Shown here piece by piece: positions 17,736-39,259 of a stretch of 39,259 nucleotides of DNA. The translations under genes and the position numbers were made by a program. The notes under the pieces were generated by a model. It made no database searches and had not been told where the DNA came from. It worked only from the letters and a program-made list of their open reading frames with translations. Source of the DNA: Actinomycetota bacterium (lineage in GTDB: Bacteria; Actinomycetota; Thermoleophilia; Miltoncostaeales; Miltoncostaeaceae); NCBI GenBank assembly GCA_005800465.1, contig SYFI01000003.1, forward strand, positions 1-39,259, read 5' to 3'. Position 1 is the first letter of the stretch. Every line of letters starts with the position of its first letter.

Positions 17736-17744
17736 GATGTGGGT

Positions 17745-19308: not shown

Positions 19309-19343
19309 CGTGACACGAGACCCCCGGTGTCGCGTGTCACGCG
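19309..19343. promoter_or_regulatory. Two copies of a CGTG-N-CACG palindrome 24 bp apart, upstream of the LLM gene / super-operon
   Basis: CGTGACACG at 19309-19317 and CGCGTGTCACGCG (perfect 13-bp palindrome) at 19331-19343. The second ends 24 nt before ATG 19367. The two copies can also pair with each other as an 11-13 bp hairpin. No T-tract follows. Confidence 0.4.
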
Positions 19344-19366
19344 GGGCCTCCGCTAGCCTCGCCGCG

Positions 19367-20500
19367 ATGTCGCGACCCCTTGAGATCTCGTGCATGGGCC
19401 CCGCGCGGCCGCCATCGCAGGCGGCCGTGGGTGCTGCCGCACGCCGCGAGGCCGACGGCTACAACGCCATGTGGTGGGCCGACCACCTGCTGCACTGGTT
19501 CCCCATGGGCATCTGGGATCCCGCGCTGGTGCCTCAGGCCGCCGCGCAGCCCAGCCCGCACGTGTGGTTCGACCCGGTGCCGGTCATCGCGCAGTCGGCC
19601 CTCTCCACCGAGCGCATCAGGCTCGGAGTCGGCGTCACCGATCTGGTGCGGCGCAACCCGGCCAGCCTGGCGCAGACGGCCCTCACGCTCGACCACCTGA
19701 CCGGCGGCAGGTTCATGCTGGGCATTGGCACCGGCGAAGAGCTCAATCTCGGCCCGTACGGAATGACCAATGCCCGGCCACTCAGGCGACTTGAGGAGGG
19801 AATCGAAGTGATCCGCCTGCTCATGTCGGACCCGGGACCCGTGGACTATGCCGGCGAGGTATTCACGCTCGAGGGTGCCTGCATGGGCGTGCGCCCGGTC
19901 GGCGACCGCCCGCCTCCCATCTGGGTTGGCGCACACCGGCCCAAGGGCCTCGCACTGGTGGGGCGCCTCGCCGACGGCTGGCTGCCCCTCGCCACAGATG
20001 TGGATGACTATTCGGCCATGCTCGCGCACGTGCGCACCGCGCAGGCGGCCGCGGGCCGTGCACTGGGTGACGTCACCGCCGGGGCCTACTGCCGCGTCGT
20101 GGTGGCCGACTCGCGTGACGGCGCCCGGGACGTCATCCTGAACTCACTGCTCTTCCGATTCATCGCGCTCACCCGTCCATCCGAGGCATTCGAGGCCGCT
20201 GGCGTTGACCACCCGCTGGGAAAGGGTGTATTCGGCATCACCAAATTGCAGCCCATGGCCATCGGTCGCCACGAGGCACTGGCACTGGCCGCGGCGGTGC
20301 CAGATGAGGTGCTTTTCGGCACCGTCATCCATGGCACACCCGACGACATCGCCAGCGGCGTACGTGCCCTCGCAGATGCTGGGGCGGAGCACGTGCAGCT
20401 CACAAACATGACACCGCTGTGCGACCCATCGCGCGCCGCCGCCAGCGAGGCGCTGCTCGGCGAGGCAGTTGCGACGATCCGATCAGGGGATTCCACATGA
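19367..20500 (+). CDS. LLM-class (luciferase-like) flavin/F420-dependent oxidoreductase
   Basis: GYNAMWWADHLL, IRLGVGVTDLVRRNPASLAQTALTLDHLTGGRFMLGIGTGE, TPDDIASGVRALADAGAEHVQL are typical of LLM family members. Start taken as ATG 19367; GTG 19310 or 19334 cannot be excluded. Confidence 0.85.
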   Translation: MSRPLEISCMGPARPPSQAAVGAAARREADGYNAMWWADHLLHWFPMGIWDPALVPQAAAQPSPHVWFDPVPVIAQSALSTERIRLGVGVTDLVRRNPASLAQTALTLDHLTGGRFMLGIGTGEELNLGPYGMTNARPLRRLEEGIEVIRLLMSDPGPVDYAGEVFTLEGACMGVRPVGDRPPPIWVGAHRPKGLALVGRLADGWLPLATDVDDYSAMLAHVRTAQAAAGRALGDVTAGAYCRVVVADSRDGARDVILNSLLFRFIALTRPSEAFEAAGVDHPLGKGVFGITKLQPMAIGRHEALALAAAVPDEVLFGTVIHGTPDDIASGVRALADAGAEHVQLTNMTPLCDPSRAAASEALLGEAVATIRSGDST

Positions 20501-21543
20501 AGCGACGCGCCGCACTTGGACTTCTGGCCATTACCGGAGCGGCTGGCCTTGCACTGACGGGCTCGGCACAGGCGGCCAATATCGTCCTGGGTGGCTGGGG
20601 CAGCATCACTGCCGACATCGGTGGTGGTGCACTGGTGTGGAGCGATACCGCACCCGCCAAGACGGCCACCTTTACCTACTGGCGCACCGACACCGGCCGT
20701 GCGGCCTTCAGCGGATCCATCGGCAAAGCGACGAAGCCGGTGGTCATCCGTACCAGCGCGGGAATCTCCACCGGTGCACGGGTTCGGGCGACGGGAACTG
20801 ACAGGGGCTACGTCACCATCGCCCCGGGTGCCGCATATGCCGGGCCGATCATCTGGTGCTGCGATTCCGAAAGCGCCGAGGTTGTGGTGTCGAGCGATGG
20901 CCGCGATGGCGCGCCGTCGCCAGCTGGGGCCGGGCTCGATGGCAGTCGCGTGCGATGGATTGCGGGCAGCGCATCGGGTGCGGTACTCGGCAGCGCGAGC
21001 CCCGTGGAGGGTGATCTGCGCGCAACCTCGGTATCGATTCCTGGCAACACGGGTCCGGGCCTCGCGTCGATCGCCACCGGCGTGGCCGCATGGGCCGATA
21101 GGGGTGCCACGGCGATCTCGATCGGTATTCCTGGTGACGACGGTGTGAGCGGCTTGCGCGGCGTGGCGCAGGGCGGCATCGTAAAGAGCGTGTTCGCCAC
21201 CCCGGCGTTTGTCGTGACCGTGGTGAAGAGCGGCAGCCGCGCCAAGGTGGTGCGTACAGACGTTGCCTCGGGCACAGCACGCACCGTGTGGAGCGGGTCC
21301 GGAACCCCCGTGCTGGCTACCGGTGGCGCTGCAATTGTGATCGGGACCGGAAGCAAAGTTTTGTCCAGCAGGGGCGGCGCCAAGGCCAGGGCCGCGGGCA
21401 CCGCCAAGGGCATCGTGGCTGCACTTGCCACCGACGGCACGCGCATTGTGGTGTTTGAGCGCATCACCAGAAAGGTCACCGTGAAGAAGCGCACGACGAA
21501 TGTGAAGAGCACGGTTGTCCGCGTGCTGGGGAGCGTTCGATGA
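20497..21543 (+). CDS. Secreted hypothetical protein (Sec signal peptide)
   Basis: MKRRAALGLLAITGAAGLALTGSAQA|AN signal peptide, followed by a Gly/Ala/Ser/Thr-rich, beta-strand-like sequence. ATG overlaps the LLM stop (ATGA 20497-20500). No family recognised. Confidence 0.65.
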   Translation: MKRRAALGLLAITGAAGLALTGSAQAANIVLGGWGSITADIGGGALVWSDTAPAKTATFTYWRTDTGRAAFSGSIGKATKPVVIRTSAGISTGARVRATGTDRGYVTIAPGAAYAGPIIWCCDSESAEVVVSSDGRDGAPSPAGAGLDGSRVRWIAGSASGAVLGSASPVEGDLRATSVSIPGNTGPGLASIATGVAAWADRGATAISIGIPGDDGVSGLRGVAQGGIVKSVFATPAFVVTVVKSGSRAKVVRTDVASGTARTVWSGSGTPVLATGGAAIVIGTGSKVLSSRGGAKARAAGTAKGIVAALATDGTRIVVFERITRKVTVKKRTTNVKSTVVRVLGSVR

Positions 21544-22649
21544 GGTGGTTGCGTATGGCACTCGCCATTGCCGCCGCCATCGCGGTGACCCCGGCGATGG
21601 GCGCCCAGATGGCAATTCAGGACGACCAGCTGCCCAACATGTCGGGCGCCGCGCTCGAGCAGCGGCTCGACCTGCTGCAGAGCACGGGCACCACCATCAC
21701 CCGGGTGGACATCCTGTGGGGATTCGTTGCCCCCACGCGCCCGGCTGATGCATCCGACCCCGGAGACCCGGCCTACGACTGGACCCGCTACGACGCCATC
21801 ATCACAGGCCTGCGTGCGCGCGACATCACGCCCATCGTGGACTTCGCGTGGACACCCACGTGGGGGTCGTCCTCGGGCAAGCGCAACGCGGCACCGCGCA
21901 CGGCCGACGGCGCAGCATTTGCCGCCGCGATCGCGCGCCGGTACAACGGCACGTGGCCCGACGGCAAGGGCGGCACCCTTCCGTTGGTGCGCCACATCGA
22001 GGTGTGGAACGAGCCCAACATCGCCACGTACTGGTACCCGCAGTGCCGGCGTCAGGGTGGGCGCTATGTGCTCGACTCGGCGCGGGCATACTCCGCACTG
22101 CTGGCCGCCTCATACACGCAGATCAAGGCTGTGAGCCCCACGGCAATCGTCATCGGGGGCGTCACCGGCCCGGTGGGTGAATCCTCCTGTAATTCGGCCG
22201 ACTCATCGGTGGGCACGCTGACATTCGCAAAGGAGATGGTGCGAAACCGCGTGCCACTCGACGCGTGGAGCATGCACCTGTACCCAATCGGATCACCCAC
22301 GCAGGCGTACTTCGTGCCGTCGTGGAAGACGATCCCGCAGATCCAGTCGCTGGTGGATAGGCTGTCGCCCGGTGCGCCCATCTATGTGACGGAGAACGGG
22401 TATCACACGTCGTACAACCGCTATCACCGCTACTTCGTGAGCGAGTTCCAGCAGGCCTCGTGGCTCACGCAGACGCAGGTGGTGGCGAACCGGTATCCCC
22501 GTGTGGAAGTGGCCATGTGGTTCAACCTTCAGGACAATCCGTACTGGACGGGCGGTCTCCTTCGTGACGACCTCACGCAGAAGCCCGCTTGGCGCGCCTT
22601 CCGTCAGGCGACCGCTGGCCAGTCGCGACCGGCGGAATGGAGTCGATGA
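21540..22649 (+). CDS. Secreted glycoside hydrolase, clan GH-A (GH5/GH39-like TIM barrel)
   Basis: Signal peptide MRWLRMALAIAAAIAVTPAMGA. HIEVWNEPN (acid/base Glu in the NEP motif) and IYVTENGYH (nucleophile Glu) occur at the expected spacing. ATGA overlap with the upstream gene. Confidence 0.75.
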   Translation: MRWLRMALAIAAAIAVTPAMGAQMAIQDDQLPNMSGAALEQRLDLLQSTGTTITRVDILWGFVAPTRPADASDPGDPAYDWTRYDAIITGLRARDITPIVDFAWTPTWGSSSGKRNAAPRTADGAAFAAAIARRYNGTWPDGKGGTLPLVRHIEVWNEPNIATYWYPQCRRQGGRYVLDSARAYSALLAASYTQIKAVSPTAIVIGGVTGPVGESSCNSADSSVGTLTFAKEMVRNRVPLDAWSMHLYPIGSPTQAYFVPSWKTIPQIQSLVDRLSPGAPIYVTENGYHTSYNRYHRYFVSEFQQASWLTQTQVVANRYPRVEVAMWFNLQDNPYWTGGLLRDDLTQKPAWRAFRQATAGQSRPAEWSR

Positions 22650-23425
22650 CCGACCACCGGGATGAGCGCACGGACGAGCGACTGGACGATGTCCGGGCGT
22701 ACTACGACCGCATCGCGCCGCGCCTGCGCGCGGTGGAGCAGGAGAACTGGCACCTGCAGAGCCGCATGTCATGCGTGCTCGCCACAATTGACCAGCACGG
22801 TCCGGGGCCGGGTGGCCGCGTGCTCGACGTGGGCTGCGGCGGGGGATTCCTGCTGGAGGAGCTCGCCCGACGCGGGTACTCGGGTGTGGGAATCGACCTG
22901 TCGCCTGAGTCTGTGGAGATCGCCCGTACCCGCCTCACGGACCTGGGCGCTGCCGATCGCCTGGACGCCGTGGTGGGCAGCGCATATGAGCCACCCGAGG
23001 GGCCGTACGACCTGGTCACACTCACCGACGTGCTCGAGCACCTGGAGGACCCGCGTGCCTGCCTGCGTGCGCTGCGCACGCAGATGGCGCCGGGTGGTCT
23101 GCTTGTTATCTCCACGCCCAATCGCCGCAGCCTTCCCGGGGCCCGGCGCTGGATGTCGGAGCACGGCGTTCCCGGCATCAAGTTGAGCCTGGCCCCCATT
23201 GACAACTGGCAGTCGTGGGTGGATCTCGAGTCGCACGCGGCAGCGGCGGGCATGGTGCCGGTAAGCAAGCGCGGCATCTTCTTTCGCCCCGGCGGAAAGA
23301 TTGGGTCGCAGATCGGTCGCGTGTACAAGTTCGCATCGGTACGTAAGGGCGAGAAGAAACTGTCCGCCACCCCTGTGGGGCGCTTCGGCTTCTACATCGT
23401 GCTGGGCTTCCGGCCCCTTCCCTGA
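22646..23425 (+). CDS. Class I SAM-dependent methyltransferase
   Basis: Motif I RVLDVGCGGGFLLEEL, motif II GVGIDLS, post-II DLVTLTDVLEHLEDP, LLVISTPN. ATG 22646 overlaps the upstream TGA (an alternative ATG is at 22637). Confidence 0.9.
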   Translation: MTDHRDERTDERLDDVRAYYDRIAPRLRAVEQENWHLQSRMSCVLATIDQHGPGPGGRVLDVGCGGGFLLEELARRGYSGVGIDLSPESVEIARTRLTDLGAADRLDAVVGSAYEPPEGPYDLVTLTDVLEHLEDPRACLRALRTQMAPGGLLVISTPNRRSLPGARRWMSEHGVPGIKLSLAPIDNWQSWVDLESHAAAAGMVPVSKRGIFFRPGGKIGSQIGRVYKFASVRKGEKKLSATPVGRFGFYIVLGFRPLP

Positions 23426-24174
23426 TGTCTGATCGAGCGGCGGGTGGGTCCGCAGCCGCCCCCGGGCGGCGCGGCTGGATTGCCGGGGGCATCATCGCGC
23501 TGGTGCTGGTGGCGTTCGGGGTGTTCGTGCTGCCGTTCGCGTTCACCACGCCGCCGCCCATCATCACGCGCTTCACCTCCACCCTTCTGTTCAGCCCCGG
23601 AGCGCCGGGGGCACGTGATGTGGCCCGGGTGTCCATCCGGCTCAGCGAACCGAGCTCGGTGTCCATCGTGGTAAAGAACTCGTCGGGTGCTGTGGTGCGC
23701 ACGCTCGCCGACGGTGCCGTGGTGCGCACCAAGACGCTCAGCGTGCCATGGACCGGCAACGGCGACGGTGGCACCGCGGTGGTACCCGATGGCACCTACA
23801 CAATTGACCTCGAGGCCCATGCCGGGCAAAAGAAATTCTCCAAGAGCCGCCGCATCGTGGTGGACACCACCGCGCCCGGAGCGCCGGGTCTGACTGTTCG
23901 CATCGTCGGCTTCTCATGCGTGGCAGTGGTCACCGGACCGGACGAGCCCACGCGCCTGGTGGTGACCTCCCCGGCCACCGATGCCACTACCGACCCGCAT
24001 ACCCTGCCGGCGCAAGGCACGTTTACATGGACCACCCGCCGGGTGGCATCGGGTGCGCAGGCCATCATAGCCACGGTGAGTGACCCAGCGGGCAACACGG
24101 CGCGCACCACCCGCCCCTGCGCACCCGTGAAGCGGCCCGCGAAGGCCACTGCGTCTCCGGGAGCGCGCCCGTGA
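23425..24174 (+). CDS. N-terminally anchored extracytoplasmic protein with FlgD-Ig-like domain
   Basis: TM segment IAGGIIALVLVAFGVFVLPFAF, then VSIVVKNSSGAVVRTL...VPWTGNGDGGTAVVPDGTYTIDLEA (FlgD_ig-like pattern W.G....G..V.DG.Y), then VVDTTAPGAP (Ig-like linker motif). Confidence 0.65.
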   Translation: MSDRAAGGSAAAPGRRGWIAGGIIALVLVAFGVFVLPFAFTTPPPIITRFTSTLLFSPGAPGARDVARVSIRLSEPSSVSIVVKNSSGAVVRTLADGAVVRTKTLSVPWTGNGDGGTAVVPDGTYTIDLEAHAGQKKFSKSRRIVVDTTAPGAPGLTVRIVGFSCVAVVTGPDEPTRLVVTSPATDATTDPHTLPAQGTFTWTTRRVASGAQAIIATVSDPAGNTARTTRPCAPVKRPAKATASPGARP

Positions 24175-25715
24175 GCGCGGTAATGGTGCGCGAGGTCGCG
24201 GCCATCGCCGGTGCCGCTGGCATGGCCGTGATGCTTCTGCCGCGGGTCATCGGAGGTCCACTCCGCATTCCCGATGGTGCGCGCCGTGTCACCGGCCTGA
24301 TCATTCTCCTCGCTGCGTGGATCGCCATGGCGGCCACTCTGGTGCCGTCCGGAATCCAGGACCGCCTCGCGCGGCCCACGGACGCCGTCGCATCCGCAGT
24401 GGCCATCGTCATTGGTCTCGTGGTTGTCGCCTTCATTGGCAGGCATCTGGCCACCCATACCTGGGCGTGGTTCCTGCTGCTGGGCCTCGCACTGCCTATT
24501 CGCGTGCCCATCTCCGTTGGGGGCACCGATGCCAACCTGCTCATCCCGCTCTACGGGGTGATCGTGCTGGGCCTCATCACCTGGGCGTGGCAGGCGCGCG
24601 TCGACTCCGGGTCGCGCCGCTGGACCAGCACGGTGCTTGATCTCCCGCTGCTCTTGTTCGCCGGCTTCACACTGGTGTCGCTGTGCTGGTCGTCAGACAT
24701 CCCCCAGGCCGCCACCAAGATCACGTTCTTCTGGATCCCGTTCCTGCTCCTGTATGTGGTGGCCGTGCAGTTGTGGCGGCGGGGCCGCGCGCTCCCGGTG
24801 CTTGCCATCACCACCATGGCCATGGCAATCCCGGTGTCGCTCTTGGCCGTGGGCGAGTACATCGGCCGTGGCGTGCTGTGGAACCACCGCCTCGAGCAGG
24901 CCAACGTGTACAGCCGCTTCTTCCGGGTCAACTCGATCTTCTACGACCCCAACATCCTGGGGCGCTATCTGGTGCTGGCCATGCTCATCGGCGTGGCCGT
25001 GGCCTACCTGAAACGGGCGGATGGACGGGTGCTCATCGCCTGTGCCGTGGCCGAGATCATCTACGCCGCCGGTCTCACCGTGACGTTTTCGCGCTCGAGT
25101 GCGCTCATGCTGATGGTCGGACTGTTCATCATGTCGCTGCGCATGTTCGGGAGAAAGCGCGTGGTCATCGTCGCCGTCATCTTCAGCGTGCTCGGGTTCG
25201 GCGTGGCCGTGGCCGGATCGCATCAGGTGCGCGATGCCCTCACGTCCACATCGCGCCTGTCCAAGGTGAGCGAAGGGCGCTTTGACCTGATGGGTGGTGG
25301 GGTGGATTTGTGGAAGGCACACCCAGTGGTGGGTGGAGGCCTCGGTTCGTTCGCCACCGACTACTCGGCGCAGCTCTCGGGCGGCGAACTGCGCAAGACC
25401 CGCGTGGTCATCTCGCACAATGCGCCGGTCACCATCCTCAGCGAAGAGGGCGTCGTCGGATTCGCCCTGTTTACGTGGCTCTCGGTGCTGGCGCTGCTGG
25501 TGGGCATCCGTGCCGGCCGCGAGCGCGACGACCACGTGGGCGTGCCGGGCGCCATGATGCTTGCCGGGCTCGTGGGCATCTTCGTGCACGCGCTCTTGTA
25601 CTCGGCGCTCATTGAGGACCCGTATACGTGGCTGCTCGCCGCCGGGATCACGGTGGTCGTGGCCACGGCGCGAAGCAACGTTCTGCCCGAGCCCGGCACC
25701 GCAGAGGCGCCATGA
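24171..25715 (+). CDS. O-antigen ligase/polymerase family (Wzy_C) polytopic membrane protein, copy 1
   Basis: 514 aa, more than 10 TM. Wzy_C-like core TVTFSRSSALMLMVGLFIM, GGGLGSFATDY, ISHNAPVTILSEEGVVGFALF. GTGA overlap with the upstream gene. Confidence 0.8.
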   Translation: MSAVMVREVAAIAGAAGMAVMLLPRVIGGPLRIPDGARRVTGLIILLAAWIAMAATLVPSGIQDRLARPTDAVASAVAIVIGLVVVAFIGRHLATHTWAWFLLLGLALPIRVPISVGGTDANLLIPLYGVIVLGLITWAWQARVDSGSRRWTSTVLDLPLLLFAGFTLVSLCWSSDIPQAATKITFFWIPFLLLYVVAVQLWRRGRALPVLAITTMAMAIPVSLLAVGEYIGRGVLWNHRLEQANVYSRFFRVNSIFYDPNILGRYLVLAMLIGVAVAYLKRADGRVLIACAVAEIIYAAGLTVTFSRSSALMLMVGLFIMSLRMFGRKRVVIVAVIFSVLGFGVAVAGSHQVRDALTSTSRLSKVSEGRFDLMGGGVDLWKAHPVVGGGLGSFATDYSAQLSGGELRKTRVVISHNAPVTILSEEGVVGFALFTWLSVLALLVGIRAGRERDDHVGVPGAMMLAGLVGIFVHALLYSALIEDPYTWLLAAGITVVVATARSNVLPEPGTAEAP

Positions 25716-26791
25716 CCCTCCCGCCCCTACGCGTGATGTGTCTGTCAAACATGTATCCCGGGCCGGGTGCACCCGACTACGGCGCGTTTATCGAGCGCAT
25801 GTGCGACTGCATGGAGACCCGCGGTGCCCATGTGGAGCGCGTGGTCATCAACAGCCGCGCCTCAGGGGCGCTTCGCACGCCCGCGAAGTACGCGCGGCTG
25901 GCCACGCAGGCCATGAGTGGTGCCGGTGACGTCGATGTGATTTGGGCGCACTACCTCTTTCCCACCGGCCTCATCGCGTCGCTTGCGGGACGCATGCGAC
26001 GCACCCCCTGGGTGATCACCGCGCATGGCGGGGACGTGGCCAATCTTTCGCGGGGAACCATCCGCCAGTTGAGCAGCGGCGCCGTCTCGGGCGCCGCGAT
26101 GGTCATCGCCGTAAGCGAGTGGCTCGCCGGACGCATGTACGAGGAGGGCCTGCGACCCGAGCGGGTTGAGGTGGCCAGCATGGGCGTGGATACCGACCGC
26201 TTCCAGATCGGCGACCGGTTGGCTGCGCGTGTGCGGCTGTCGATCCCGGCCGACGTGCCCGTCGTCCTTGCGGTCGGTGGTCTCAGCGAGCGCAAGAATC
26301 CCATGGGTCTTCTGCAGGCATTCGCGCGCCTTCATGCCGATCGTCCCGATGCCCGTCTGGTGTTTGTGGGGGACGGCCCCCAGGCCGCGGTGATCGATGC
26401 CGGTTCACGGCGTCTCGGTATCCCAGGTGCCGTGCACCGGACGGGTGTGGTCCCCAACCGCAGCGTGACCGACTGGATGACCGCGGCCGACGTGGTGGCA
26501 CAGGTGAGCCTGGTGGAACCGCTGGGTGTGGCCGCGCTGGAAGCCATGGCCAGTGGGCGCCCGGTGGTGGGAACGTCGGTGGGGGGCCTCAAAGAGGTGG
26601 TGCCCGACGGCGTGGCGGGCGTGATTGTGGATCCGCGCGATCCGGTGTCCATCGCGGAGGGGCTCGTGCGGATGCTCGATGCCGGACCCGACCCGGAGAC
26701 CTGCCGGGCCGCGGCCATGGAGCACTCCCTTCTGCACGAAACCGACCGCGTGCTGGGGATTCTGGCAGCGGCCGCAGGGCGCCCGGCGTAA
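25712..26791 (+). CDS. Glycosyltransferase family 4 (TuaC-like N-terminus)
   Basis: MTLPPLRVMCLSNMYPGPGAPDYGAFIE.., VFVGDGPQ, VSLVEPLGVAALEAMASGRPVVGTSVGGLKEVV (GT4 E-x7-E). ATG 25712 overlaps the upstream TGA. Confidence 0.9.
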   Translation: MTLPPLRVMCLSNMYPGPGAPDYGAFIERMCDCMETRGAHVERVVINSRASGALRTPAKYARLATQAMSGAGDVDVIWAHYLFPTGLIASLAGRMRRTPWVITAHGGDVANLSRGTIRQLSSGAVSGAAMVIAVSEWLAGRMYEEGLRPERVEVASMGVDTDRFQIGDRLAARVRLSIPADVPVVLAVGGLSERKNPMGLLQAFARLHADRPDARLVFVGDGPQAAVIDAGSRRLGIPGAVHRTGVVPNRSVTDWMTAADVVAQVSLVEPLGVAALEAMASGRPVVGTSVGGLKEVVPDGVAGVIVDPRDPVSIAEGLVRMLDAGPDPETCRAAAMEHSLLHETDRVLGILAAAAGRPA

Positions 26792-26829
26792 CGGACGGCG
26801 GCGGCGCTCCTGCTAGCGTCACCTCTCAG

Positions 26830-28287: not shown

Positions 28288-28313
28288 GCGATTCCGGCGC
28301 CCTGCGCATTCTC

Positions 28314-33003: not shown

Positions 33004-34256
33004 TGGCACGCGTGCTCTATGTCTCGCAGTACTTCGTCTCCGCCGATCAGCCGGGTGGCGTTCGCCACTGGCAGCACACCCGGGCACTCGCCCGCGCCGG
33101 ACACGACGTCACGGTGGTCACCAGTTACGTGCAGCACAAGGAGCGCACAATCCCCGAGGAGTATCAGGGGCGGCGCATCGTGAAGTCGCGTGAAGACGGC
33201 GTCGATGTCATCCGCTGCTACTCAACGCCGGGCTACGGGCGCGATATGCGCTCACGCATGAGCAACTACGCCACATTCGCGCTGTGGTCGGTGCTGGCCG
33301 AACTCCGCATCCCGCGCCCCGACGTGGTCGTGGCGTCATCGCCACCACTGCCCGCTGCTGCTGTTGCCGCGGCATTTGCAAGCGCGAGGGGATGCCGGTT
33401 GCTTCTCGAAGTGCGCGACCTCTGGCCCGATTCCATCATTCCCATGGGCGTGGTCAAGGATTCCCGCGTGATCGCCGCTGCACGGAAGATGGAGCAATAC
33501 GCCTACCGGCGGGCCGACCGTATCGTGGCGCTCACCGAGGGCATCCGGGATGGCATCGCGGCACAGGGCATTCCGGCGGGTCGCATCAGCCTCATCACTA
33601 ATGGAATCGATCTGGACATCGCAGGCGGTGAGCACCCGCCCGCCGACGTGGGCGTGCCAGACGACGCCTTTGTCGCCATGTACGTGGGCAATCACGGCAC
33701 CTACTCGTCGCTGGGCACAGTACTGCAGGCCGCGAAGATGCTGGGGGACGACCCATCCATCCGCATCGTCCTGGTGGGAGGCGGCGACCAGAAGCCCATG
33801 CTGCAGGAGATGGCCCGCGACCTCGGCCTGCAGAACACCACCTTCATCGGATCGGTGCCCAAGCACGCGGTGCCGTCGTATCTCGAGCGTGCCGATATCG
33901 GGCTCATCCCGTACCAGGACATGCCCTTGTTCGCTGGGGCGCTGCCCAACAAGACGTTCGACTACATGGCCGCTGGCAGGCCGCTGCTCGCCGCTGCACC
34001 AGTTGGCGAGCTGACCGGGCTCATCGACCGTGCCGACTGCGGATGGAACGTGGCGCCGGAAGACCCCGCGGCCATGGCCGCCGCCATCCGCGACGCCGCC
34101 GGCAACCGGGCCACGGGGCTCGCCAGAGGCGCCCGGGGCCGGGAGTACGCACTGGCCGAATACGACCGTGCAGTGCTCGCAGCGCGCTTCGTGCGGCTGG
34201 TGGACGACCTCGCAGCATCCCCCCGTGCGCGCAGACGACGGCGGCCCGCGAGATGA
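33003..34256 (+). CDS. Glycosyltransferase family 4 (WbuB-like)
   Basis: MARVLYVSQYFVSADQPGGVRHWQHTRALARAGHDVTVVTS, MYVGNHGTYSSL, ALPNKTFDYMAAGRPLLAA. The start overlaps the upstream stop by 1 nt (TGATG). Confidence 0.9.
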   Translation: MARVLYVSQYFVSADQPGGVRHWQHTRALARAGHDVTVVTSYVQHKERTIPEEYQGRRIVKSREDGVDVIRCYSTPGYGRDMRSRMSNYATFALWSVLAELRIPRPDVVVASSPPLPAAAVAAAFASARGCRLLLEVRDLWPDSIIPMGVVKDSRVIAAARKMEQYAYRRADRIVALTEGIRDGIAAQGIPAGRISLITNGIDLDIAGGEHPPADVGVPDDAFVAMYVGNHGTYSSLGTVLQAAKMLGDDPSIRIVLVGGGDQKPMLQEMARDLGLQNTTFIGSVPKHAVPSYLERADIGLIPYQDMPLFAGALPNKTFDYMAAGRPLLAAAPVGELTGLIDRADCGWNVAPEDPAAMAAAIRDAAGNRATGLARGARGREYALAEYDRAVLAARFVRLVDDLAASPRARRRRRPAR

Positions 34257-34969
34257 CCATTGCATCGCCCGATGAACCGCTCCGCTACCGTGGGGAGCAC
34301 GTGCAGCAGATCGTTCCCGACACCGAGGCTGGCAGGGCGGCAGCCACTCGTCCGGTCGGCGGCGCAGCGAAGCGTGCCCTCGACCTCGTGGTCGCAGTGC
34401 CCGCGACGATCGCGCTCGCACCGGTCATGGCCGGCATCGCCCTCTGGGTGCGCCGCGACTCCGACGGCCCGGCCATTTTCCGCCAGGAGCGGGTGGGTGC
34501 GTTTGGCAAGCCGTTCAGGGTCCTCAAGTTCCGTTCGATGGTCATGAACGCCGAGCACATCGGGGCCGGGCTCGCCGTCACCGAGGACGACGACCGCATC
34601 ACCCGCGCCGGGCGCATCCTCAGGCGCCTGTCGCTCGACGAGCTGCCGCAGCTGATCAACGTGGTGAAGGGCGACATGAGCCTTGTGGGGCCCCGGCCCA
34701 CCGTGCCATGGCAGGTGGAGCGCTACGACGCCACCCAACGGCGGCGGCTTCTGGCACGGCCCGGGGTGACCGGGCTGGCCCAGGTGCGTGGCCGGGCATC
34801 TATCCCCTGGTCGGCGCGCATCGCGCTAGACGTGGACTACGTGGACAACTGGCGCATGGCCCGCGATCTGCGCATCCTTCTTGAGACGGTGCGTGTGGTC
34901 GTCCGTGGCGAGGGCTCATACCGCGGCGAGAGCGGTGGATTCGACCTCTCGGAGGGCACCGGTGGCTGA
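34253..34969 (+). CDS. Small polyprenyl-phosphate phosphoglycosyl transferase (bacterial sugar transferase family), pathway initiator
   Basis: AKRALDLVVAVPATIALAPVMAGIALWVRRDSDGPAIFRQERVG..GKPFRVLKFRSM, RLSLDELPQLINVVKGDMSLVGPRP, RPGVTGLAQV. ATG 34253 overlaps the upstream TGA. Confidence 0.92.
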   Translation: MTIASPDEPLRYRGEHVQQIVPDTEAGRAAATRPVGGAAKRALDLVVAVPATIALAPVMAGIALWVRRDSDGPAIFRQERVGAFGKPFRVLKFRSMVMNAEHIGAGLAVTEDDDRITRAGRILRRLSLDELPQLINVVKGDMSLVGPRPTVPWQVERYDATQRRRLLARPGVTGLAQVRGRASIPWSARIALDVDYVDNWRMARDLRILLETVRVVVRGEGSYRGESGGFDLSEGTGG

Positions 34970-35993
34970 CTCCCCGTCGGTGCTGCTCACCTGTGCCGGG
35001 CAGCGCGTGGACATCGTGCGGGCCTTCCGCGACGCCCTGCATCGCCGCGGCGAGGGTGGGCGGGTCGTCGTGAGCGACCTCGACCCGCTGTCGCCATCGC
35101 TGTACGCGGCCGATCTGGTGGTGGCGCTGCCGCCCGTGGACGACCCGGGGTACGGGCGTGCGGTGGCCGACGTCGTGGCCCGCGAGGGCGTGGGGGCCGT
35201 GCTTCCCCTCACCGACCTCGATCCGGTGGTGCTGGCCGAGGCGGCACCCCTGATTACCGAGGCAGGCGGGCGGGCATTCCTTCCCACCCCGCAGGTGGCG
35301 GCCGGGTGCCAGGACAAGTGGCTGTGCCACGAGATGCTTGAGGCGGCGGGACTTCCATCGCCACCCACCTGGCAACTCCGCACCGTCGATCAGTTGTCGC
35401 TGCCCTTTCCGGTGATGATCAAGCCGCGCATCGGGTTCGCCGGTCGGTGGATCCACCGTTGCGACGACACCGACGAGCTCGACTTCTTCCTGGCACGCAC
35501 ACCCGTGGCCAGCGTCATCCAGAAGGCGCTCCCGGGCGAGGAGTTCAGCATCGACTGCCTGGGGTCGCTGGACGCGCGCGCAATCGGTGCAATTCCCCGC
35601 TCCATGCTGCAGAGCAAAGGCGGCGAGCAGATCAAGGGCGAGACGCTTGACGACCCGCAGCTGGTGGACCTCGCGGCGCGCACTATCGAGGGGCTCGGCC
35701 TGGTGGGCCCCTGCACCATCCAGTGCTTCCGCGAGAATGGCGACATCCTTGGCATCACCGACATCAACACCCGCTTCGGCGGTGGCTTTCCGCTGCCCCT
35801 CGCGGCGGGCGGCGACTACCCCGTCCTCATCCTCGCAATGGCTGCAGATGAGGACGTCCCGCCCCGCCTCGGAGATCACCGCGCGGGTGTCGTGATGACA
35901 CGATTCCTCTCGGAGCGCATCCTCATGCGCGATGGTGAGGCACTCATACCCATGGCGGACCGCGGCGAGGAGGCGATGACCAGTGGCATCTGA
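34962..35993 (+). CDS. ATP-grasp domain protein (CPSase-large-subunit-like / ATP-grasp_4 type)
   Basis: LLTCAGQRVDIVRAFRDAL, DKWLCHEMLEAAGLPSP, FPVMIKPRIGFAG, IQKALPGEEFSIDC, GPCTIQCF..GDILGITDINTRFGGGFPL. GTG 34962 overlaps the PGT gene by 8 nt; the start is uncertain. Confidence 0.8.
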   Translation: MADSPSVLLTCAGQRVDIVRAFRDALHRRGEGGRVVVSDLDPLSPSLYAADLVVALPPVDDPGYGRAVADVVAREGVGAVLPLTDLDPVVLAEAAPLITEAGGRAFLPTPQVAAGCQDKWLCHEMLEAAGLPSPPTWQLRTVDQLSLPFPVMIKPRIGFAGRWIHRCDDTDELDFFLARTPVASVIQKALPGEEFSIDCLGSLDARAIGAIPRSMLQSKGGEQIKGETLDDPQLVDLAARTIEGLGLVGPCTIQCFRENGDILGITDINTRFGGGFPLPLAAGGDYPVLILAMAADEDVPPRLGDHRAGVVMTRFLSERILMRDGEALIPMADRGEEAMTSGI

Positions 35994-36780
35994 TCGCGAG
36001 ATCACCCTGGGGGACGTGGGGCGCACCATCTGGCGGGGCAAGTGGTACATCATCATCGCCGCAGTGGTGGGGGCGGTCATCGGGCTTCTCTTCACCTTCA
36101 CCTCAACCACCCAGTACACGGCGTCGGCAAAGGTGTACCTGGGCCAGGCCACGACCATGATGGGCAACCTCGCCCAGACCGCCGGCACCAACCCGCTCAC
36201 CGCGGCCACGATCCTGCAGGGTGATGTGGTGGTGGACGCCGTGGCGGAGAAGACCGGTCTCACGCGGTCGCAGGTGAACGCCGGCACCGACATCTCTGTG
36301 CCGCGGGCCCCCGGTACCACCAGCACCAACCAGCCGGCCATCGCCACCATCACCGCACGCACAGGGAGCACCGACACCTCCATCGCGCTGGCCAATGCCT
36401 ACGCCGAGGTGGCGCTGGCGGGGGCCAACAGCGGCTACGCGAGGGTGCAGCAAACCCTCGAGAACCAGGTGCGCGTGGCAACGGCCGACGTGGCTGCCCT
36501 GCGGGCACAGGCCAACCGGGGTGGCGGGAGCCAGTCGGCGATCATCTCCCAGCTGGCGTCGCTGCGCACTGATCTGGCCACCGCGCAGTTGCAACTGGCG
36601 CGCATACAGCAGATCGAGGCGCCGGCCGTGGTCTCGCTCGCGAAGAGTGCGGCGTCGTCCAGCAGCAGCAGCAACCGGATGCGCACAGCGATTATCGGTG
36701 GCCTCATCGGGCTGCTGCTGGGCACCGTCGTGGCCCTCATCGTGGGCGGCACAAGGCGGCGAGGGGCCTCGGCCACCTAG
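35983..36780 (+). CDS. Wzz-like polysaccharide co-polymerase (chain-length determinant), no kinase domain
   Basis: ITLGDVGRTIWRGKWYIIIAAVVGAVIGLLFTF (Wzz N-terminal pattern + TM1), a central predicted coiled region (QQTLENQVRVATADVAALRAQ..LRTDLATAQLQLARIQQ), and C-terminal TM2 AIIGGLIGLLLGTVVALIVGG. Confidence 0.8.
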   Translation: MASDREITLGDVGRTIWRGKWYIIIAAVVGAVIGLLFTFTSTTQYTASAKVYLGQATTMMGNLAQTAGTNPLTAATILQGDVVVDAVAEKTGLTRSQVNAGTDISVPRAPGTTSTNQPAIATITARTGSTDTSIALANAYAEVALAGANSGYARVQQTLENQVRVATADVAALRAQANRGGGSQSAIISQLASLRTDLATAQLQLARIQQIEAPAVVSLAKSAASSSSSSNRMRTAIIGGLIGLLLGTVVALIVGGTRRRGASAT

Positions 36781-36795
36781 GCCGGGCGCCCACCC

Positions 36796-38037
36796 ATGCG
36801 GCTCATCCCGCGTACGCAGAAGGGCATTGCCTGGTTCGTGTCGGGCGTCTGCATTCTTCTGGCCCTCGCAAGCGTGGGGCTGCTGGTGATCTCCGGGGGC
36901 CTTGACTCGGGCGACCAACTGGGGACCTCCGAGGGCTTCGTGCCCGCGAAGGCGCCGGTTGGTAACGCCACATCCACCTCGTGGCCCGAGTACGGCTACA
37001 ACGCCGAACGCACCCGGGCCAATCCGGACCTCGATCTGGCGCCCCCATTCGCCAAGGTGTGGCACCGCGAAGCCAGGGCGCTTGTGGAGTTTCCACCCGT
37101 TGTGAGCGATGGCCGCCTCGTGTTCGGCACCAATGGCCGGTACGCATTGTCGCTGAGCGTGGCCACCGGTGGCATCTACTGGTACGTCAAGCTTTCGGGC
37201 CGCGTGGCGGCATCGCCGGCGATCGCAGGCGATCTGGTGCTGTTCTCCACCGACGACGGCTACGTGACCGCCCGCCGCTTCGACCACGGGCAGGTGGTGT
37301 GGCATCGCAAGGTGGGCTCATCCGTTGAGTCGTCGCCGCTCGTCATTGGCAACCGCGCCTACGTGGGCACTCTCGATGGCCTCGTGAAGTGCCTCAATGT
37401 GCGCACTGGTGCGGTGATATGGACCTCCAAGGCAGCGGGCGCAGTGAAGTCGAGTCTCGCGCGATCGGGCAGGGACGTGGTGGTGGGCGACTATGGCGGT
37501 CAGGTCACCGCGTTCAATGCGCGCACCGGACGGATTCGTTGGCAGGCCACCAGCCCGGGGCAATTGCTCGGGGGTCCCGGCACCTTCTACGCAAACCCCG
37601 CCGTGGCCTACGGTCGCGTCTATGTGGCCAACGTCAATGGGCGCGTCATTGCACTCGATGCCAACGACGGATCCGTGGCCTGGGTGCGGGTGCTTGGAGA
37701 CTGGGTGTACTCAAGCCCCGCCGTGAGCGGCGACACCGTGTACGTGGGTTCCTACGACCATCGCCTGTATGCCTTCTCTGCAGTGACCGGTGGCGTGCGC
37801 TGGTCGTACGACGCGGGAGAGCGCATCGCCGGATCACCCACGGTCATCGGTGGGCTGGTGTGGTTCGCGACGCTTGCACGTAATCCGCGGCAAGGGCGTA
37901 CCTACGCCATTGACACCACGACCGGGCGGCGAGCCTTCACGTTCCCCGATGGGCGCTACACGCCCGCGGTGGGCGTGGACGGGCGGCTGATCCTCACGGG
38001 GGTCCGCACCCTCTACGGGCTGGCGCCCACCCCATGA
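36796..38037 (+). CDS. N-terminally anchored PQQ-like (BamB/YVTN-type) beta-propeller repeat protein
   Basis: TM segment IAWFVSGVCILLALASVGLLVI, then repeated blades: G.IYWYVKL.GRVAASPAI.GDLV, G.VVWHRKVGSSVESSPLV.GNRAYVGT.DG.V.CLN..TG.VIW, G.IRWQ, DGSVAWV..LGDWVYSSPAVSGDTVYVGSYDHRLYAF...G.VRW. Confidence 0.8.
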   Translation: MRLIPRTQKGIAWFVSGVCILLALASVGLLVISGGLDSGDQLGTSEGFVPAKAPVGNATSTSWPEYGYNAERTRANPDLDLAPPFAKVWHREARALVEFPPVVSDGRLVFGTNGRYALSLSVATGGIYWYVKLSGRVAASPAIAGDLVLFSTDDGYVTARRFDHGQVVWHRKVGSSVESSPLVIGNRAYVGTLDGLVKCLNVRTGAVIWTSKAAGAVKSSLARSGRDVVVGDYGGQVTAFNARTGRIRWQATSPGQLLGGPGTFYANPAVAYGRVYVANVNGRVIALDANDGSVAWVRVLGDWVYSSPAVSGDTVYVGSYDHRLYAFSAVTGGVRWSYDAGERIAGSPTVIGGLVWFATLARNPRQGRTYAIDTTTGRRAFTFPDGRYTPAVGVDGRLILTGVRTLYGLAPTP

Positions 38038-39259
38038 GCATCCGGCAGGTGGCGCGGGCGGCAGCCGTCGTCGCCCTCTTCGGAATCCTCTCCCGCACCC
38101 TCGGGTTCGTACGCGAGATCGTGTTGGCGGGTGTGTACGGCACCACGGCGCAGACCGATGCCTACGTCAATACACTGTTTCTGGTCAACACGGTGGCGGC
38201 GGTGCTGCTCTACGTGCTCACAACGCTGCTCATCCCGGTGTTCCAGCAGGAGCGCGAGCGATCCGGTACCGACAGTGCGTGGGGGCTCCTGTGGTCCATC
38301 TTCGCCTGGGTGGGCATTGTGCTCATTGCGCTCACGGCGTTCATTGCCATCTGGCCCGAGGGACCAGTGGCGCTGTTCGACATGGGGCCCGAGCGTTCCC
38401 AGATCGCCGCAGACCTCCTGCGGGTGATGGCACCCGCACTGATGCTGCAGGGGTTCAGCGCCCTGTTCACCGCAATCCTGCAGGTGCACGGGCGCTTCAC
38501 CGGGCCAGCAGCCGTGGGCGTGGCGTTCAACACAGGAATTCTGATCGGTGTCATCGCTGGCGCCGGCACCATCGGCATCACCGCGGCCGCCTGGGGCGTC
38601 ACGCTGGGCGCGTTGCTGCAGGTGCTGTTCCAGCTCCCGCAGTTCAGTCGCGAGGCCCGGAACGGGGGCGGGCACATGTCGCTCAGGCACCCCAGTCTTT
38701 CGCCCACGCTGGTGCTCGCCATCCCCGTGCTCGCGGCATCGGTGCTGCAGCAGATCAACTCATTCACCGACAAGCTCTTCGCCTCGTCGCTCGAGGCCGG
38801 CCGCAACGCCGCGCTCTCCTTTGCGAATGCGCTCGGGTCGGCACCCCGCACCGTGCTGCTATTTCCCCTGCTCATGCCGCTCTTTCCTCTTATCGCGGGG
38901 TATGTCGCCAAGGGGAAGCGGAACGAGACCGCTGCCGCCTTCCATCGCGCCGCCGGCATCCTGGCACTGGTGGCCATCCCCGTCACGGTATTCATGGCCA
39001 TCGGTGCGTCGGAGATTGCGCAGGTGGCGTTCGGCCGGGGCAAATGCGATGCCGCATGCGTGTCGGAGATTGCGTCGCCACTGGCCTTCTATGGCGTGGC
39101 GGTGTGGGGCAACTTCATCGGCTATCTGCTCAACCGCACCCTCTCGGCCAGCAACCGTGCACGCGAAGTGATGATCGCCACCATCATCAGCGTGGTGGTC
39201 ACCATCGGGCTTGATCTCGTGTTCCTGCAGCCGATGCAGCAAGCCGGTCTTGCGCTGGC
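38034..39259 (+). CDS. murJ: MurJ/MviN-family MOP flippase (N-terminal about 408 aa; continues beyond the window)
   Basis: Absent from the ORF track because it is open at the window edge. My translation from ATG 38034 (ATGA overlap with the upstream stop) reads MSIRQVARAAAVVALFGILSRTLGFVREIVLAGVYGTTAQTDAYVNTLFLVNTVAAVLLYVLTTLLIPVF... This matches the MurJ N-terminal signature (SR.LGF.R....A..YG.....DA). Confidence 0.85.
   Translation, partial: MSIRQVARAAAVVALFGILSRTLGFVREIVLAGVYGTTAQTDAYVNTLFLVNTVAAVLLYVLTTLLIPVFQQERERSGTDSAWGLLWSIFAWVGIVLIALTAFIAIWPEGPVALFDMGPERSQIAADLLRVMAPALMLQGFSALFTAILQVHGRFTGPAAVGVAFNTGILIGVIAGAGTIGITAAAWGVTLGALLQVLFQLPQFSREARNGGGHMSLRHPSLSPTLVLAIPVLAASVLQQINSFTDKLFASSLEAGRNAALSFANALGSAPRTVLLFPLLMPLFPLIAGYVAKGKRNETAAAFHRAAGILALVAIPVTVFMAIGASEIAQVAFGRGKCDAACVSEIASPLAFYGVAVWGNFIGYLLNRTLSASNRAREVMIATIISVVVTIGLDLVFLQPMQQAGLAL

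Follow-up and report, generated by a model that had tools for sequence, protein, structure and literature searches.

The first 39,259 nucleotides of the 199-kb metagenomic contig SYFI01000003.1 (Miltoncostaeaceae, Thermoleophilia) were analysed; this stretch is called the window below, and the same DNA is also present in the metagenome-assembled genome (MAG) GCA_005778575.1. The G+C content of the window is 68 %. On its plus strand 17 genes, for which the working names g01 to g17 are used, form one unbroken chain from position 19310 to the window end (Table 1). The gene model is based on the G+C content at the codon positions (GC3 frame analysis) and on a listing of open reading frames (ORFs). 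It bears out the 17 co-directional genes of an initial annotation, made from the sequence alone, in which the chain was read as a Wzy-type glycopolymer locus with two ATP-grasp ligases and a deacetylase fusion. The chain had there been started at 19367, which is an in-frame ATG within g01 and a plausible alternative to the start used here. The genes of main interest are g10, encoding an ATP-grasp ligase, and g11, in which a deacetylase domain is fused to a glycosyltransferase of family 4 (GT4).

Table 1. Features of the gene chain, its junctions and other features of the window, with one feature of related loci
Feature	Position	Strand	Assignment and basis
g01	19310..20500	+	luciferase-like (LLM) oxidoreductase, probably F420-dependent; Pfam Bac_luciferase 3.2e-59
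g02	20497..21543	+	secreted protein, Sec signal peptide, N-terminus MKRRAALGLLAITGAAGLALTGSAQA
g03	21540..22649	+	secreted clan GH-A glycoside hydrolase (GH), GH39/PslG-like; N-terminal signal-like segment
g04	22646..23425	+	class I S-adenosylmethionine (SAM)-dependent methyltransferase; Pfam Methyltransf_23 4.8e-26, also Methyltransf_11/12/25/31
g05	23425..24174	+	membrane-anchored Ig-like protein; FlgD_ig 6.7e-8, Big_13 2e-5; N-terminal transmembrane segment 16-48
g06	24171..25715	+	Wzy_C polytopic protein no. 1 (polymerase or ligase); 8.5e-13, 48.8 bits vs 31.7; ~14 hydrophobic segments
g07	25712..26791	+	GT4; Glycos_transf_1 2.4e-32, Glyco_trans_4_4 1.7e-16
g08	26830..28287	+	Wzy_C polytopic protein no. 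2; 1.9e-11, 44.4 bits vs 31.7; ~12 hydrophobic segments
g09	28314..29498	+	GT4, TuaC-like; Glycos_transf_1 4.5e-40
g10	29495..30664	+	core ATP-grasp ligase; COG3919/'D-aspartate ligase'-like by source names
g11, N-terminal half (~residues 1-430)	30661..31950	+	DUF7033 and carbohydrate esterase family 4 (CE4)-type (VimE-like) deacetylase domain, predicted cytoplasmic
g11, C-terminal half (~residues 440-780)	31978..33003	+	GT4 domain; Glyco_trans_1_4 3e-22, Glycos_transf_1 4.6e-18
g12	33003..34256	+	GT4, WcaI-like; Glyco_trans_4_4 1.4e-23; NCBIfam WcaI 1.9e-48, 165 bits vs 276
g13	34253..34969	+	small monotopic polyprenyl-phosphate glycosyl-1-phosphate transferase (initiating PGT), 238 aa, one hydrophobic segment
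g14	34962..35993	+	accessory ATP-grasp ligase, PRK12767 'CPS-like' family
g15	35983..36780	+	short Wzz/polysaccharide co-polymerase chain-length determinant, no kinase domain; transmembrane segments 18-44 and 233-259
g16	36796..38037	+	membrane-anchored PQQ-type (BamB-like) beta-propeller, predicted extracytoplasmic; transmembrane segment 9-40
g17	38034..39259	+	MurJ-family (MOP superfamily) flippase, cut by window end; 515 aa on source contig
ATGA overlaps	g01/02, 02/03, 03/04, 06/07, 10/11, 12/13, 16/17	+	junction read-out
GTGA overlap	g05/06	+	junction read-out
TTGA overlap	g09/10	+	junction read-out
TGATG overlaps (two)	g04/05, g11/12	+	junction read-out
8-nt overlap	g13/14	+	junction read-out
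11-nt overlap	g14/15	+	junction read-out
Minus-strand cluster	11386-17735	-	DUF2079 membrane protein, LPG_synthase_TM protein, GT4-like, GT2, 621-aa protein (~7 transmembrane segments, no Pfam match)
Long ORF	5268-6689	-	codon bias
Long ORF	6269-7366	-	codon bias; overlaps the preceding ORF
Long ORF	7315-8697	+	codon bias
Second propeller paralog of related loci	L034, L040, L042, L047, L059, L062 (~16.6-17.7 kb each); L084 11840-13261		PQQ-type propeller

Domains were called by Pfam and NCBIfam profile searches of the chain proteins, scored against the cut-offs of the families. The two different ATP-grasp proteins of the initial annotation are indeed present, g14 by Pfam and g10 by structure prediction and fold search. 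In Pfam g10 has a marginal match to ATPgrasp_Ter (21.6 bits, below the cut-off of 29.1). Its AlphaFold2 (AF2) model, with a mean predicted local distance difference test score (pLDDT) of 89.6, is matched by Foldseek to ATP-grasp enzymes at E 2e-16, the best small match being 2pn1 (template modelling (TM) score 0.77), and the family profile of g10 matches D-Ala-D-Ala ligase (Ddl) at 1.9e-5. The ATP-grasp fold of g10 is confirmed at the level of the predicted model. K160, E201-G205 and E287-V-N289-P-R291 (E-x-N-x-R) are invariant in the family. The top Foldseek matches are biotin carboxylases, yet at 14-19 % identity and a TM score of ~0.6, and no gene for a biotin carboxyl carrier protein or a carboxyltransferase lies nearby, while the linkage to glycan genes is conserved; g10 as a paralog of biotin carboxylase or of purine enzymes was therefore rejected. 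The designation 'D-aspartate ligase' is the name that g10 homologs have in some source records.

The protein encoded by g14 matches PylC-like_N (5.1e-16), ATP-grasp_3 (2.4e-13) and ATPgrasp_Ter (2.7e-17), all above the Pfam cut-offs, and NCBIfam PRK12767.1-4 at 1.2e-70 (238 bits, cut-off 390). Among solved structures the uncharacterised 2pn1 is closest to it (2.1e-28), and K154 and D267-I-N269-T-R271 are invariant. The two ligases are distant kin (hhalign E 3e-5, 24 % identity); their conserved Lys and acidic-x-Asn sets align, and these residues are probably catalytic equivalents taking part in nucleotide and Mg binding. No Pfam match to the TupA-like ATP-grasp family was found for g10 or g14 at E up to 0.01.

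The N-terminal half of g11 (g11-N) matches Pfam DUF7033 at 2.6e-9 and the NCBIfam model VimE at 1.8e-32, residues 71-416 covering positions 56-429 of the 431 in the model. The VimE model represents a UDP-2,3-diacetamido-2,3-dideoxy-glucuronate deacetylase. With the AF2 model of g11-N (pLDDT 90.2), Foldseek found the polysaccharide deacetylase 3rxz (3e-7), the O-antigen protein WbmS (3hft, 3e-6) and chitin deacetylases, with TM scores of just 0.33-0.41 on the query; the family profile also matches 3rxz, at 4.1e-5. Conserved residues of g11-N, including His and Asp as usual in metal-dependent deacetylases, are H170-D171-x-D173, H262, R292-x-H294, D356 and W392-H393-N394. Since g11 has no transmembrane segments, the deacetylase would act in the cytoplasm. 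The VimE match, the fold search and the Pfam GT4 matches together support the fusion of a deacetylase-like domain to a GT4 that had been suggested for this gene. One distant homolog, P0203, contains PF01522 and PF23019 in a single protein.

The remaining genes supply the parts of a Wzy-dependent pathway. The initiating PGT, two Wzy_C proteins, a Wzz protein, four GT4 domains and a flippase of the MOP superfamily all score above Pfam thresholds, so that the Wzy-type glycopolymer locus stands, and the LLM oxidoreductase, the SAM methyltransferase and the MurJ assignment of the original part list were likewise confirmed by Pfam and NCBIfam. The PGT g13 is recognised by Bac_transf at 5.3e-63 (212.2 bits, cut-off 27) and by NCBIfam EPS_sugtrans at 6.4e-81, and the chain-length determinant g15 by Wzz at 3.8e-11 (43.6 bits, cut-off 25.5). 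Among the GT4 enzymes, g09 matches NCBIfam TuaC at 4.8e-54 (183.8 bits, cut-off 550). The second Wzy_C protein, g08, is TuaE-like over its full length (6.3e-22, 78.2 bits, cut-off 400); by sequence, polymerase and ligase roles would suit g06 and g08 alike. The flippase g17 matches Pfam MurJ at 6.9e-47, and at full length it scores 214.4 bits with TIGR01695, just under the cut-off of 235.55. Its position is kept in related loci. No Polysacc_synt match, as expected of a Wzx-type flippase, occurs in g01-g22 (g18-g22 being the continuation of the chain beyond the window); the MurJ-family g17 holds that position.

Four proteins, g02, g03, g05 and g16, are predicted to act outside the membrane; three of them (g02, g05 and g16) had not been named in the initial annotation. 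The fourth, g03, is the secreted GH-A hydrolase already noted there. It has no Pfam match, and its assignment is supported by the motifs WNEPN (E158) and TETG (E285), invariant in 22 orthologs, and by matches of the family profile to GH39 beta-xylosidases (9.4e-7) and PslG (2.5e-4). The beta-propeller g16 matches PQQ_2 at 5.3e-43 and Beta-prop_ACSF4 at 9.5e-42. No family match was found for g02 in Pfam, NCBIfam or a PDB-profile search; it shows the lowest conservation in the cluster (27-84 % identity), with a Cys-Cys pair that is invariant in the alignment of its orthologs. The methyltransferase g04 is 62-90 % identical across loci. For g01 the best NCBIfam matches are F420-dependent LLM families, all below cut-off; the gene stands at the 5' edge of many related loci (57-74 % identity) and is absent in L007.

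An explicit read-out of the junctions reproduced exactly the start-stop overlaps at 13 of the 16 junctions that had been described, together with the gaps of 38 nt (26792-26829) and 15 nt (36781-36795). The g08/g09 junction is best read as a gap of 26 nt, with g09 starting at ATG 28314 and encoding 394 aa. A CTG at 28284, earlier entertained as the start of g09, is unnecessary and was ruled out: ATG 28314 is preferred because it is the choice of the gene caller, because the ortholog of Miltoncostaea marina has 393 aa, and because the TuaC model aligns from residue 4. In the ortholog cluster of M. marina 10 of 14 junctions still overlap. Tight packing is also found in the upstream minus-strand cluster at 11386-17735, with four 4-nt overlaps; tight coupling is a habit of this genome and not unique to the chain. 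Terminator-like sites were not in excess in the window (3 found, 6.0 expected), the single weak plus-strand site lying within the coding region of g10. Scans of the window for promoter and terminator consensus sequences were uninformative in this high-GC genome, and Rfam and tRNA scans of it gave no matches.

The chain continues past the window edge on the source contig. The full-length MurJ gene is followed by five further genes, for a PMT_2 glycosyltransferase of the GT-C fold, a GT2, an unknown secreted protein, a short-chain dehydrogenase/reductase (SDR) and an ABC ATPase, after which tatC lies on the opposite strand. The SDR gene encodes a UDP-glucuronate decarboxylase (E 2e-109 to human UXS1) and closes the conserved cluster. 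The absence of nucleotide-sugar genes from the window, stated in the initial annotation, is correct, with this decarboxylase, the sole nucleotide-sugar enzyme of g01-g22, lying just beyond it; domain searches found no UDP-glucose dehydrogenase or other UDP-sugar 6-dehydrogenase among g01-g22. The PpgS-like GT2 and the PMT_2 GT-C (L001 14617-17009) are inserted between MurJ and the decarboxylase. This pair is found only in the closer relatives of the window and is absent in M. marina, and it probably represents a lineage-specific extracytoplasmic side-chain glycosylation.

Related loci were collected by a scan of one genome per species and then by tblastn with all chain proteins. Homologs of g10 came nearly all from uncultured Thermoleophilia. 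The survey recovered 79 species-level loci, nearly all from Miltoncostaeaceae or other Thermoleophilia, together with six from Gaiellaceae. Of the 36 loci of at least 20 kb, 32 contain at least 10 of the 12 core genes, collinear and on one strand, at 45-90 % identity. The g11 gene directly follows g10 in 48 of 53 loci. Of 46 loci, 34 have g14; the other 12 lack it cleanly, with just 100-230 nt between g13 and g15; g10 is thus a core gene of the cluster and g14 an accessory one. Both ligase genes are linked to glycan genes across species, contrary to the outcome, an unrelated metabolic role with no such linkage, that the initial annotation had set out as the alternative.

The cluster is also present in a cultured species, M. 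marina (CP064655.1), near the end of its 3.37-Mb chromosome (~3.34-3.36 Mb). As gene order is collinear at 45-90 % protein identity across dozens of species, a hypervariable capsule or O-antigen locus was ruled out, and the family-wide collinearity argues for a core envelope or wall polymer rather than a variable capsule. Of the secondary cell-wall or capsular polysaccharide proposed earlier, the wall side is accordingly favoured and the capsule disfavoured. In many related loci, including that of M. marina, a second PQQ-type propeller paralog lies between the Wzz gene and g16 (Table 1); it is absent from the lineage of the window. Several MAG records with the cluster at 70-98 % identity (L004, L020, L021, L023-L025, L012) are titled 'Bifidobacterium breve', 'uncultured Bifidobacterium sp.' or 'Acidobacteria bacterium', which are almost certainly taxonomic mislabels.

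The linkage of ligase, deacetylase and GT4 extends beyond the family. Stand-alone DUF7033 deacetylases outside it are 30-39 % identical to g11-N. Three consecutive separate genes of the metagenomic Wzx/Wzy clusters L085 and L086 encode a g10 homolog (41 % identity over the full length, 3e-84), a DUF7033 deacetylase (37 %) and a GT4 (31-35 % to g11 residues 442-775). As the genes of the module are separate there, g11 is regarded as having arisen by fusion of two of the three module genes. In L086, which carries a Wzx flippase, the module is followed by a g12-like GT4 (32 % identity, 2e-56), and a Bacteroidales contig (L087) has an overlapping deacetylase/ATP-grasp gene pair. In a metagenome scan seeded only with the distant deacetylases, a g10-type ligase was immediately upstream on the same strand in 36 of the 50 distant DUF7033 loci with upstream room, and a GT4 immediately downstream in 30 of the 58 with downstream room. 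In the Gaiellaceae the ligase is ~2 kb from the deacetylase in all six loci. The module was found in Thermoleophilia, Chloroflexota, Bacteroidales and unassigned metagenomic lineages.

Gene fusions point in the same direction. The g10-type family comprises 2,232 clusters at 50 % identity (E up to 1e-30), and among its top members the ligase is fused to a DUF7033 deacetylase (P0482), to canonical Polysacc_deac_1 domains in three architectures (P0385, P0423, P0447), to a DegT-type sugar aminotransferase (P0437), to a formyltransferase domain (P0418), to a FemAB-like GCN5-related N-acetyltransferase (GNAT; P0419), to a D-2-hydroxyacid dehydrogenase (P0450) and to GT4 domains (P0427, P0472, P0340). 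A Chloroflexota protein belongs to one of the CE4 fusion clusters. Most of the fusion partners are enzymes that form or modify sugar amines: the deacetylases would unmask such an amine, the aminotransferase would create one, and the formyl and GNAT transferases would acylate one.

Some of the distant loci contain further ligases. Many of them (L088-L128; e.g. L096 4746-6001, L099, L101-L105) have two tandem g10-type ligases upstream of the deacetylase, and in seven proteins (P0339, P0349, P0356, P0369, P0379, P0404, P0436) two g10-type ATP-grasp domains lie in one polypeptide; such tandem ligases and domains could carry out sequential addition of two residues. L086 (11862-15488) and L085 (13164-15295) also have a second, non-homologous pair, in which a PIG-L (LmbE-type) deacetylase adjoins an ATPgrasp_Ter protein and a GT4, and in L086 a FemAB-like (VimA-like) gene follows this pair. 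A logic of deacetylation followed by reacylation appears to have been invented more than once.

From the gene structure, the domain and fold identities, the synteny, and the linkage and fusions of the module we infer a pathway, its substrates and its polymer as follows. The locus probably encodes a single, conserved assembly line of the Wzy-dependent type, with which Miltoncostaeaceae would make a heteropolysaccharide of the cell envelope and in which an amino sugar is de-N-acetylated and re-acylated at the expense of ATP. The repeat unit would be begun on polyprenyl phosphate by the small PGT g13 and extended on the cytoplasmic face by the four GT4 domains, those of g07, g09, g12 and g11. The last of these would add an N-acetylated amino sugar, from which the CE4-type half of g11 would remove the N-acetyl group. 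With ATP, the translationally coupled g10 would then activate a different carboxylic acid, either an amino acid or a hydroxy or dicarboxylic acid, as an acyl phosphate and couple it to the freed amine. In about three quarters of the species g14 may introduce a further amide-linked group, and g04 would methylate the unit. After flipping by the MurJ-family g17, one Wzy_C protein would polymerise the units under control of the Wzz protein g15, and the other may ligate the product to an acceptor. Outside the membrane the hydrolase g03 and g02, g05 and g16 may process or scaffold the polymer. Beyond the window, the polyprenyl-phosphate-sugar synthase/GT-C pair may add a side sugar, and the UDP-glucuronate decarboxylase would supply UDP-xylose.

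The fusion of a g10-type ligase to a D-2-hydroxyacid dehydrogenase hints that hydroxy acids are possible donors besides amino acids. The accessory g14 could add a second residue, or it could amidate a uronate as the C-terminal ATP-grasp of Campylobacter jejuni Cj1438 (Cj1438C) does (PMC11800379).

Several observations weigh against the assembly line as proposed. With VimE g11-N scores 112.5 bits, far from the equivalog cut-off of 440; g11 does not reach Polysacc_deac_1 (PF01522), DUF7033 being the only Pfam family for its N-terminal half; and the putative catalytic residues of g11-N were assigned from conservation. Co-transcription of the chain is deduced solely from the overlaps. In L038 g10 lies apart from the other cluster genes, and tandem g10 paralogs with 58-59 % identity to g10 occur outside any glycan locus (L083 6760-9182, equal to L044 10001-12369). 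The latter adjoin an ABC importer, a cysteine dioxygenase, an amidohydrolase and a PglD-like acetyltransferase, and the ligase may there have been recruited to a small-molecule pathway. For g14 neither a partner deacetylase nor a gene for synthesis of a donor acid is evident. In addition, g17 could be a housekeeping lipid II flippase, considering the origin-proximal locus near trxB/trxA and a score just under the MurJ equivalog cut-off, and a sugar carboxylate, the group activated by Cj1438C (PMC11800379), could just as well be the target of the ATP-grasp enzymes.

The last of these points is the core of an alternative in which the same Wzy-type polymer is made and the ATP-grasp enzymes activate the C6 carboxylate of a uronic acid for amidation with an amine or amino acid, the deacetylase having an unrelated role such as the provision of a free, positively charged glucosamine (GlcN)-type residue. 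Amidation of this kind takes place on the growing capsule chain through the C-terminal ATP-grasp of Cj1438 (PMC11800379), the decarboxylase at the cluster end shows that a pool of UDP-glucuronic acid (UDP-GlcA) exists, and the top matches of some chain proteins are TuaC/TuaE-like. As g14 has no linked deacetylase, uronate amidation is quite possible for this enzyme. However, neither ligase matches the TupA-like family, g01-g22 contain no UDP-sugar 6-dehydrogenase, and the partners and fusions of g10 are deacetylases, an aminotransferase, and N-acyl- and formyltransferases, with no uronic-acid-making dehydrogenase among them. Because g10 is firmly linked genetically to a deacetylase and its relatives are fused to sugar-amine enzymes, N-acylation of a de-N-acetylated amino sugar is favoured over uronate amidation, which we regard as unlikely for the locus as a whole. 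The amide-linked substituents that the initial annotation had proposed on amino sugars or uronic acids are thereby strengthened for g10 in the form of amino-sugar N-acylation, and uronate amidation becomes the less favoured form for it; the 'teichuronopeptide-like' character given to the polymer is not established, as nothing shows uronic acids in it.

Two other explanations concern the fate of the glycan and the unity of the chain. The Wzy_C domain is common to Wzy polymerases, WaaL ligases and PglL O-oligosaccharyltransferases, and the cluster encodes two Wzy_C proteins, one of which might act as a ligase in the manner of WaaL or PglL. The glycan would then be neither a wall polysaccharide nor a capsule but a conserved oligo- or polysaccharide attached to a lipid or, by S-layer or O-glycosylation, to protein. 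Domain searches, including Pfam, found no LCP-family wall ligase in the cluster, family-wide conservation would suit a fixed glycan, and in Porphyromonas gingivalis the product of VimE and VimA is the linking sugar for protein attachment (PMC7468200). A Wzz regulator and an embedded PslG-like hydrolase are, on the other hand, typical of polymer pathways, and no candidate acceptor protein was identified. The sequences would accommodate this explanation and the assembly line equally, and we consider transfer to protein or lipid rather improbable. It is still less probable, and in our opinion very unlikely, that the chain is a composite of separate units in which g17 is a housekeeping lipid II flippase and g10 and/or g14 act on peptidoglycan precursors, like D-aspartate ligase, or on a small metabolite. 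The name 'D-aspartate ligase' of some g10 homologs, the MurJ-family, origin-proximal g17 near trxB/trxA and a class A penicillin-binding protein, the transporter and cysteine-metabolism genes beside the g10 paralogs in L083, and the equally tight packing of other operons of the genome would all fit a composite. It is opposed by the adjacency of g10 and g11 in 48 of 53 loci, by the linkage of the ligase to deacetylase and GT4 across distant lineages with different flippases (e.g. Wzx in L086), by the fusion proteins that tie the ligase to deacetylase and GT4 domains, and by a collinear order among species with just 45-60 % protein identity.

The assembly line with amino-sugar re-acylation may be part of a wider picture, which we put forward tentatively and which is, taken as a whole, somewhat less likely to be right than not to be. 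In it, a widespread and as yet undescribed module is made up of g10-type ligases, DUF7033/CE4 deacetylases and a GT4 of its own, and during glycan assembly it replaces N-acetyl on an amino sugar by an amino acid or another acid. In Miltoncostaeaceae the module would be central to a core wall polymer that is common to the family, encoded near the origin, flipped by MurJ and provided with aminoacyl or short-peptide side groups; this polymer could stand in for teichoic acids in this class.

The surroundings of the chain in the window include other envelope-type genes. The thioredoxin genes trxB and trxA, followed by a gene for a class A penicillin-binding protein, occur at 3447-4741 and 8694-10904, and in M. 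marina the cluster lies 7-28 kb from the end of the chromosome record; these neighbours and this position suggest an origin-proximal 'cell-envelope island'. The minus-strand cluster at 11386-17735 is a further cluster of envelope type, its five genes overlapping one another by 4 nt. The gene for OtsA (GT20 trehalose-6-phosphate synthase) is at 17460-19229 on the same strand as the chain and 80 nt upstream of g01; in its product the GT20 domain is preceded by a basic N-terminal stretch of ~100 aa. In L007 OtsA lies directly before g02 with no LLM gene between them. Three long ORFs at 5268-8697 have coding-like codon bias and no Pfam match.

Amino sugars with non-acetyl N-acyl groups (alanyl, seryl, aspartyl or hydroxy-acyl) are found in many bacterial surface glycans, and to our knowledge the installing enzymes are unassigned for most of these groups. 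If the proposal is true, the module gives a function to DUF7033 and to thousands of unannotated ATP-grasp proteins, which are usually mislabelled 'carbamoyl-phosphate synthase' or 'D-aspartate ligase', and it provides an ATP-dependent alternative to the route using the FemAB-like VimA. Thermoleophilia are a common and almost unstudied actinobacterial class of soil and freshwater, for which the locus gives a first concrete view of a pathway to an envelope polymer. To the initial annotation the present analysis adds the family-wide conservation of the cluster, the widespread uncharacterised ligase/deacetylase/GT4 module, and a cultured host, M. marina, in which the prediction is directly testable.

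In the open literature searched, no paper was found on DUF7033, on the envelope of Miltoncostaea, or on ATP-grasp enzymes N-acylating the amino sugars of glycans, nor on a characterised actinobacterial system with this gene set, in agreement with the initial annotation. A paper of the Aravind group on ATP-grasp enzymes and cell-surface polymers was set aside as not relevant, as it concerns eukaryotic TTL-like enzymes. A known system close in its general parts is the tua operon of Bacillus subtilis, likewise a Wzy-type wall-polymer operon with a PGT, TuaC-like GT4s, a TuaE-like Wzy protein, a Wzz-like protein and a flippase of the MOP superfamily. The locus differs from it in having no TuaD dehydrogenase and a flippase of the MurJ type rather than the Wzx/TuaB type, whereas tua has no ATP-grasp, deacetylase, GH-A, methyltransferase or propeller genes. 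TuaC (for g09), TuaE (for g08) and TuaH are top NCBIfam names in the locus, but all score far below the equivalog cut-offs (TuaC 183.8 vs 550 bits, TuaE 78.2 vs 400, TuaH 49.2 vs 550), by which orthology was ruled out. The parallel with tua drawn earlier thus holds as a generic likeness of parts and not as orthology, considering the scores, the missing TuaD and the different flippase.

Other likenesses concern single steps. Like PslG in the Psl operon of Pseudomonas aeruginosa, g03 is a secreted clan GH-A enzyme encoded within a biosynthetic operon, although the similarity of g03 is distant and reaches no Pfam family. The pair g19/g18, consisting of a GT2 (NCBIfam PpgS 4.8e-27) and a GT-C (PMT_2), resembles that of the PpgS/Rv3779-type decoration of mycobacterial arabinogalactan, with a PpgS score of 94.8 bits against a cut-off of 370. 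In mycothiol and bacillithiol synthesis a GT4 (MshA/BshA) adds N-acetylglucosamine, a deacetylase (MshB/BshB) frees the amine, and an ATP-dependent ligase (MshC) attaches an amino acid, which by analogy is the same three-step chemistry as proposed for g11 and g10. There, however, the product is a small-molecule thiol, the deacetylase has the LmbE/PIG-L fold and not that of CE4, and the ligase is similar to aminoacyl-tRNA synthetases and not an ATP-grasp enzyme. The MshA/BshA matches of g07 and g09 reflect generic GT4 similarity and are below cut-offs.

Cj1438 of the C. jejuni HS:2 capsule consists of a GT2 and a TupA-like ATP-grasp amidoligase, which activates the carboxylate of glucuronic acid, and the amide is needed before the next sugar is added (PMC11800379). 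As in the locus studied here, an ATP-grasp ligase acts in a surface-glycan pathway and is physically coupled to a glycosyltransferase. The Campylobacter ligase is of the TupA-like family, to which g10 and g14 do not belong, and its pathway depends on an ABC transporter rather than on Wzy, whereas the partner of the ligase in Miltoncostaeaceae is a predicted deacetylase that would free an amine. The Wbp/Vim pathway of P. gingivalis and Tannerella forsythia is distinct as well: no match to FemAB/Acetyltransf_6 or to a Wbp-type dehydrogenase or aminotransferase was found in the 17 genes and the five downstream, the deacetylase is here fused to the GT4, and the host is an actinobacterium of the Gram-positive lineage without a type IX secretion system. 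The locus belongs neither to the Wbp/Vim pathway nor, by its ligases, to the TupA-like family. Both Wbp/Vim and, by prediction, the locus nevertheless have a CE4-type cytoplasmic deacetylase, homologous in g11-N and VimE, beside a GT4 (VimF in the former). In P. gingivalis VimE deacetylates a diacetamido uronic acid, after which VimA, a FemAB-like GNAT, adds Ser or Gly to its C2 amine (PMC7468200). By analogy, removal of an N-acetyl group followed by transfer of an acid to the freed sugar amine is the order of events proposed here, with an ATP-grasp ligase in the place of VimA.

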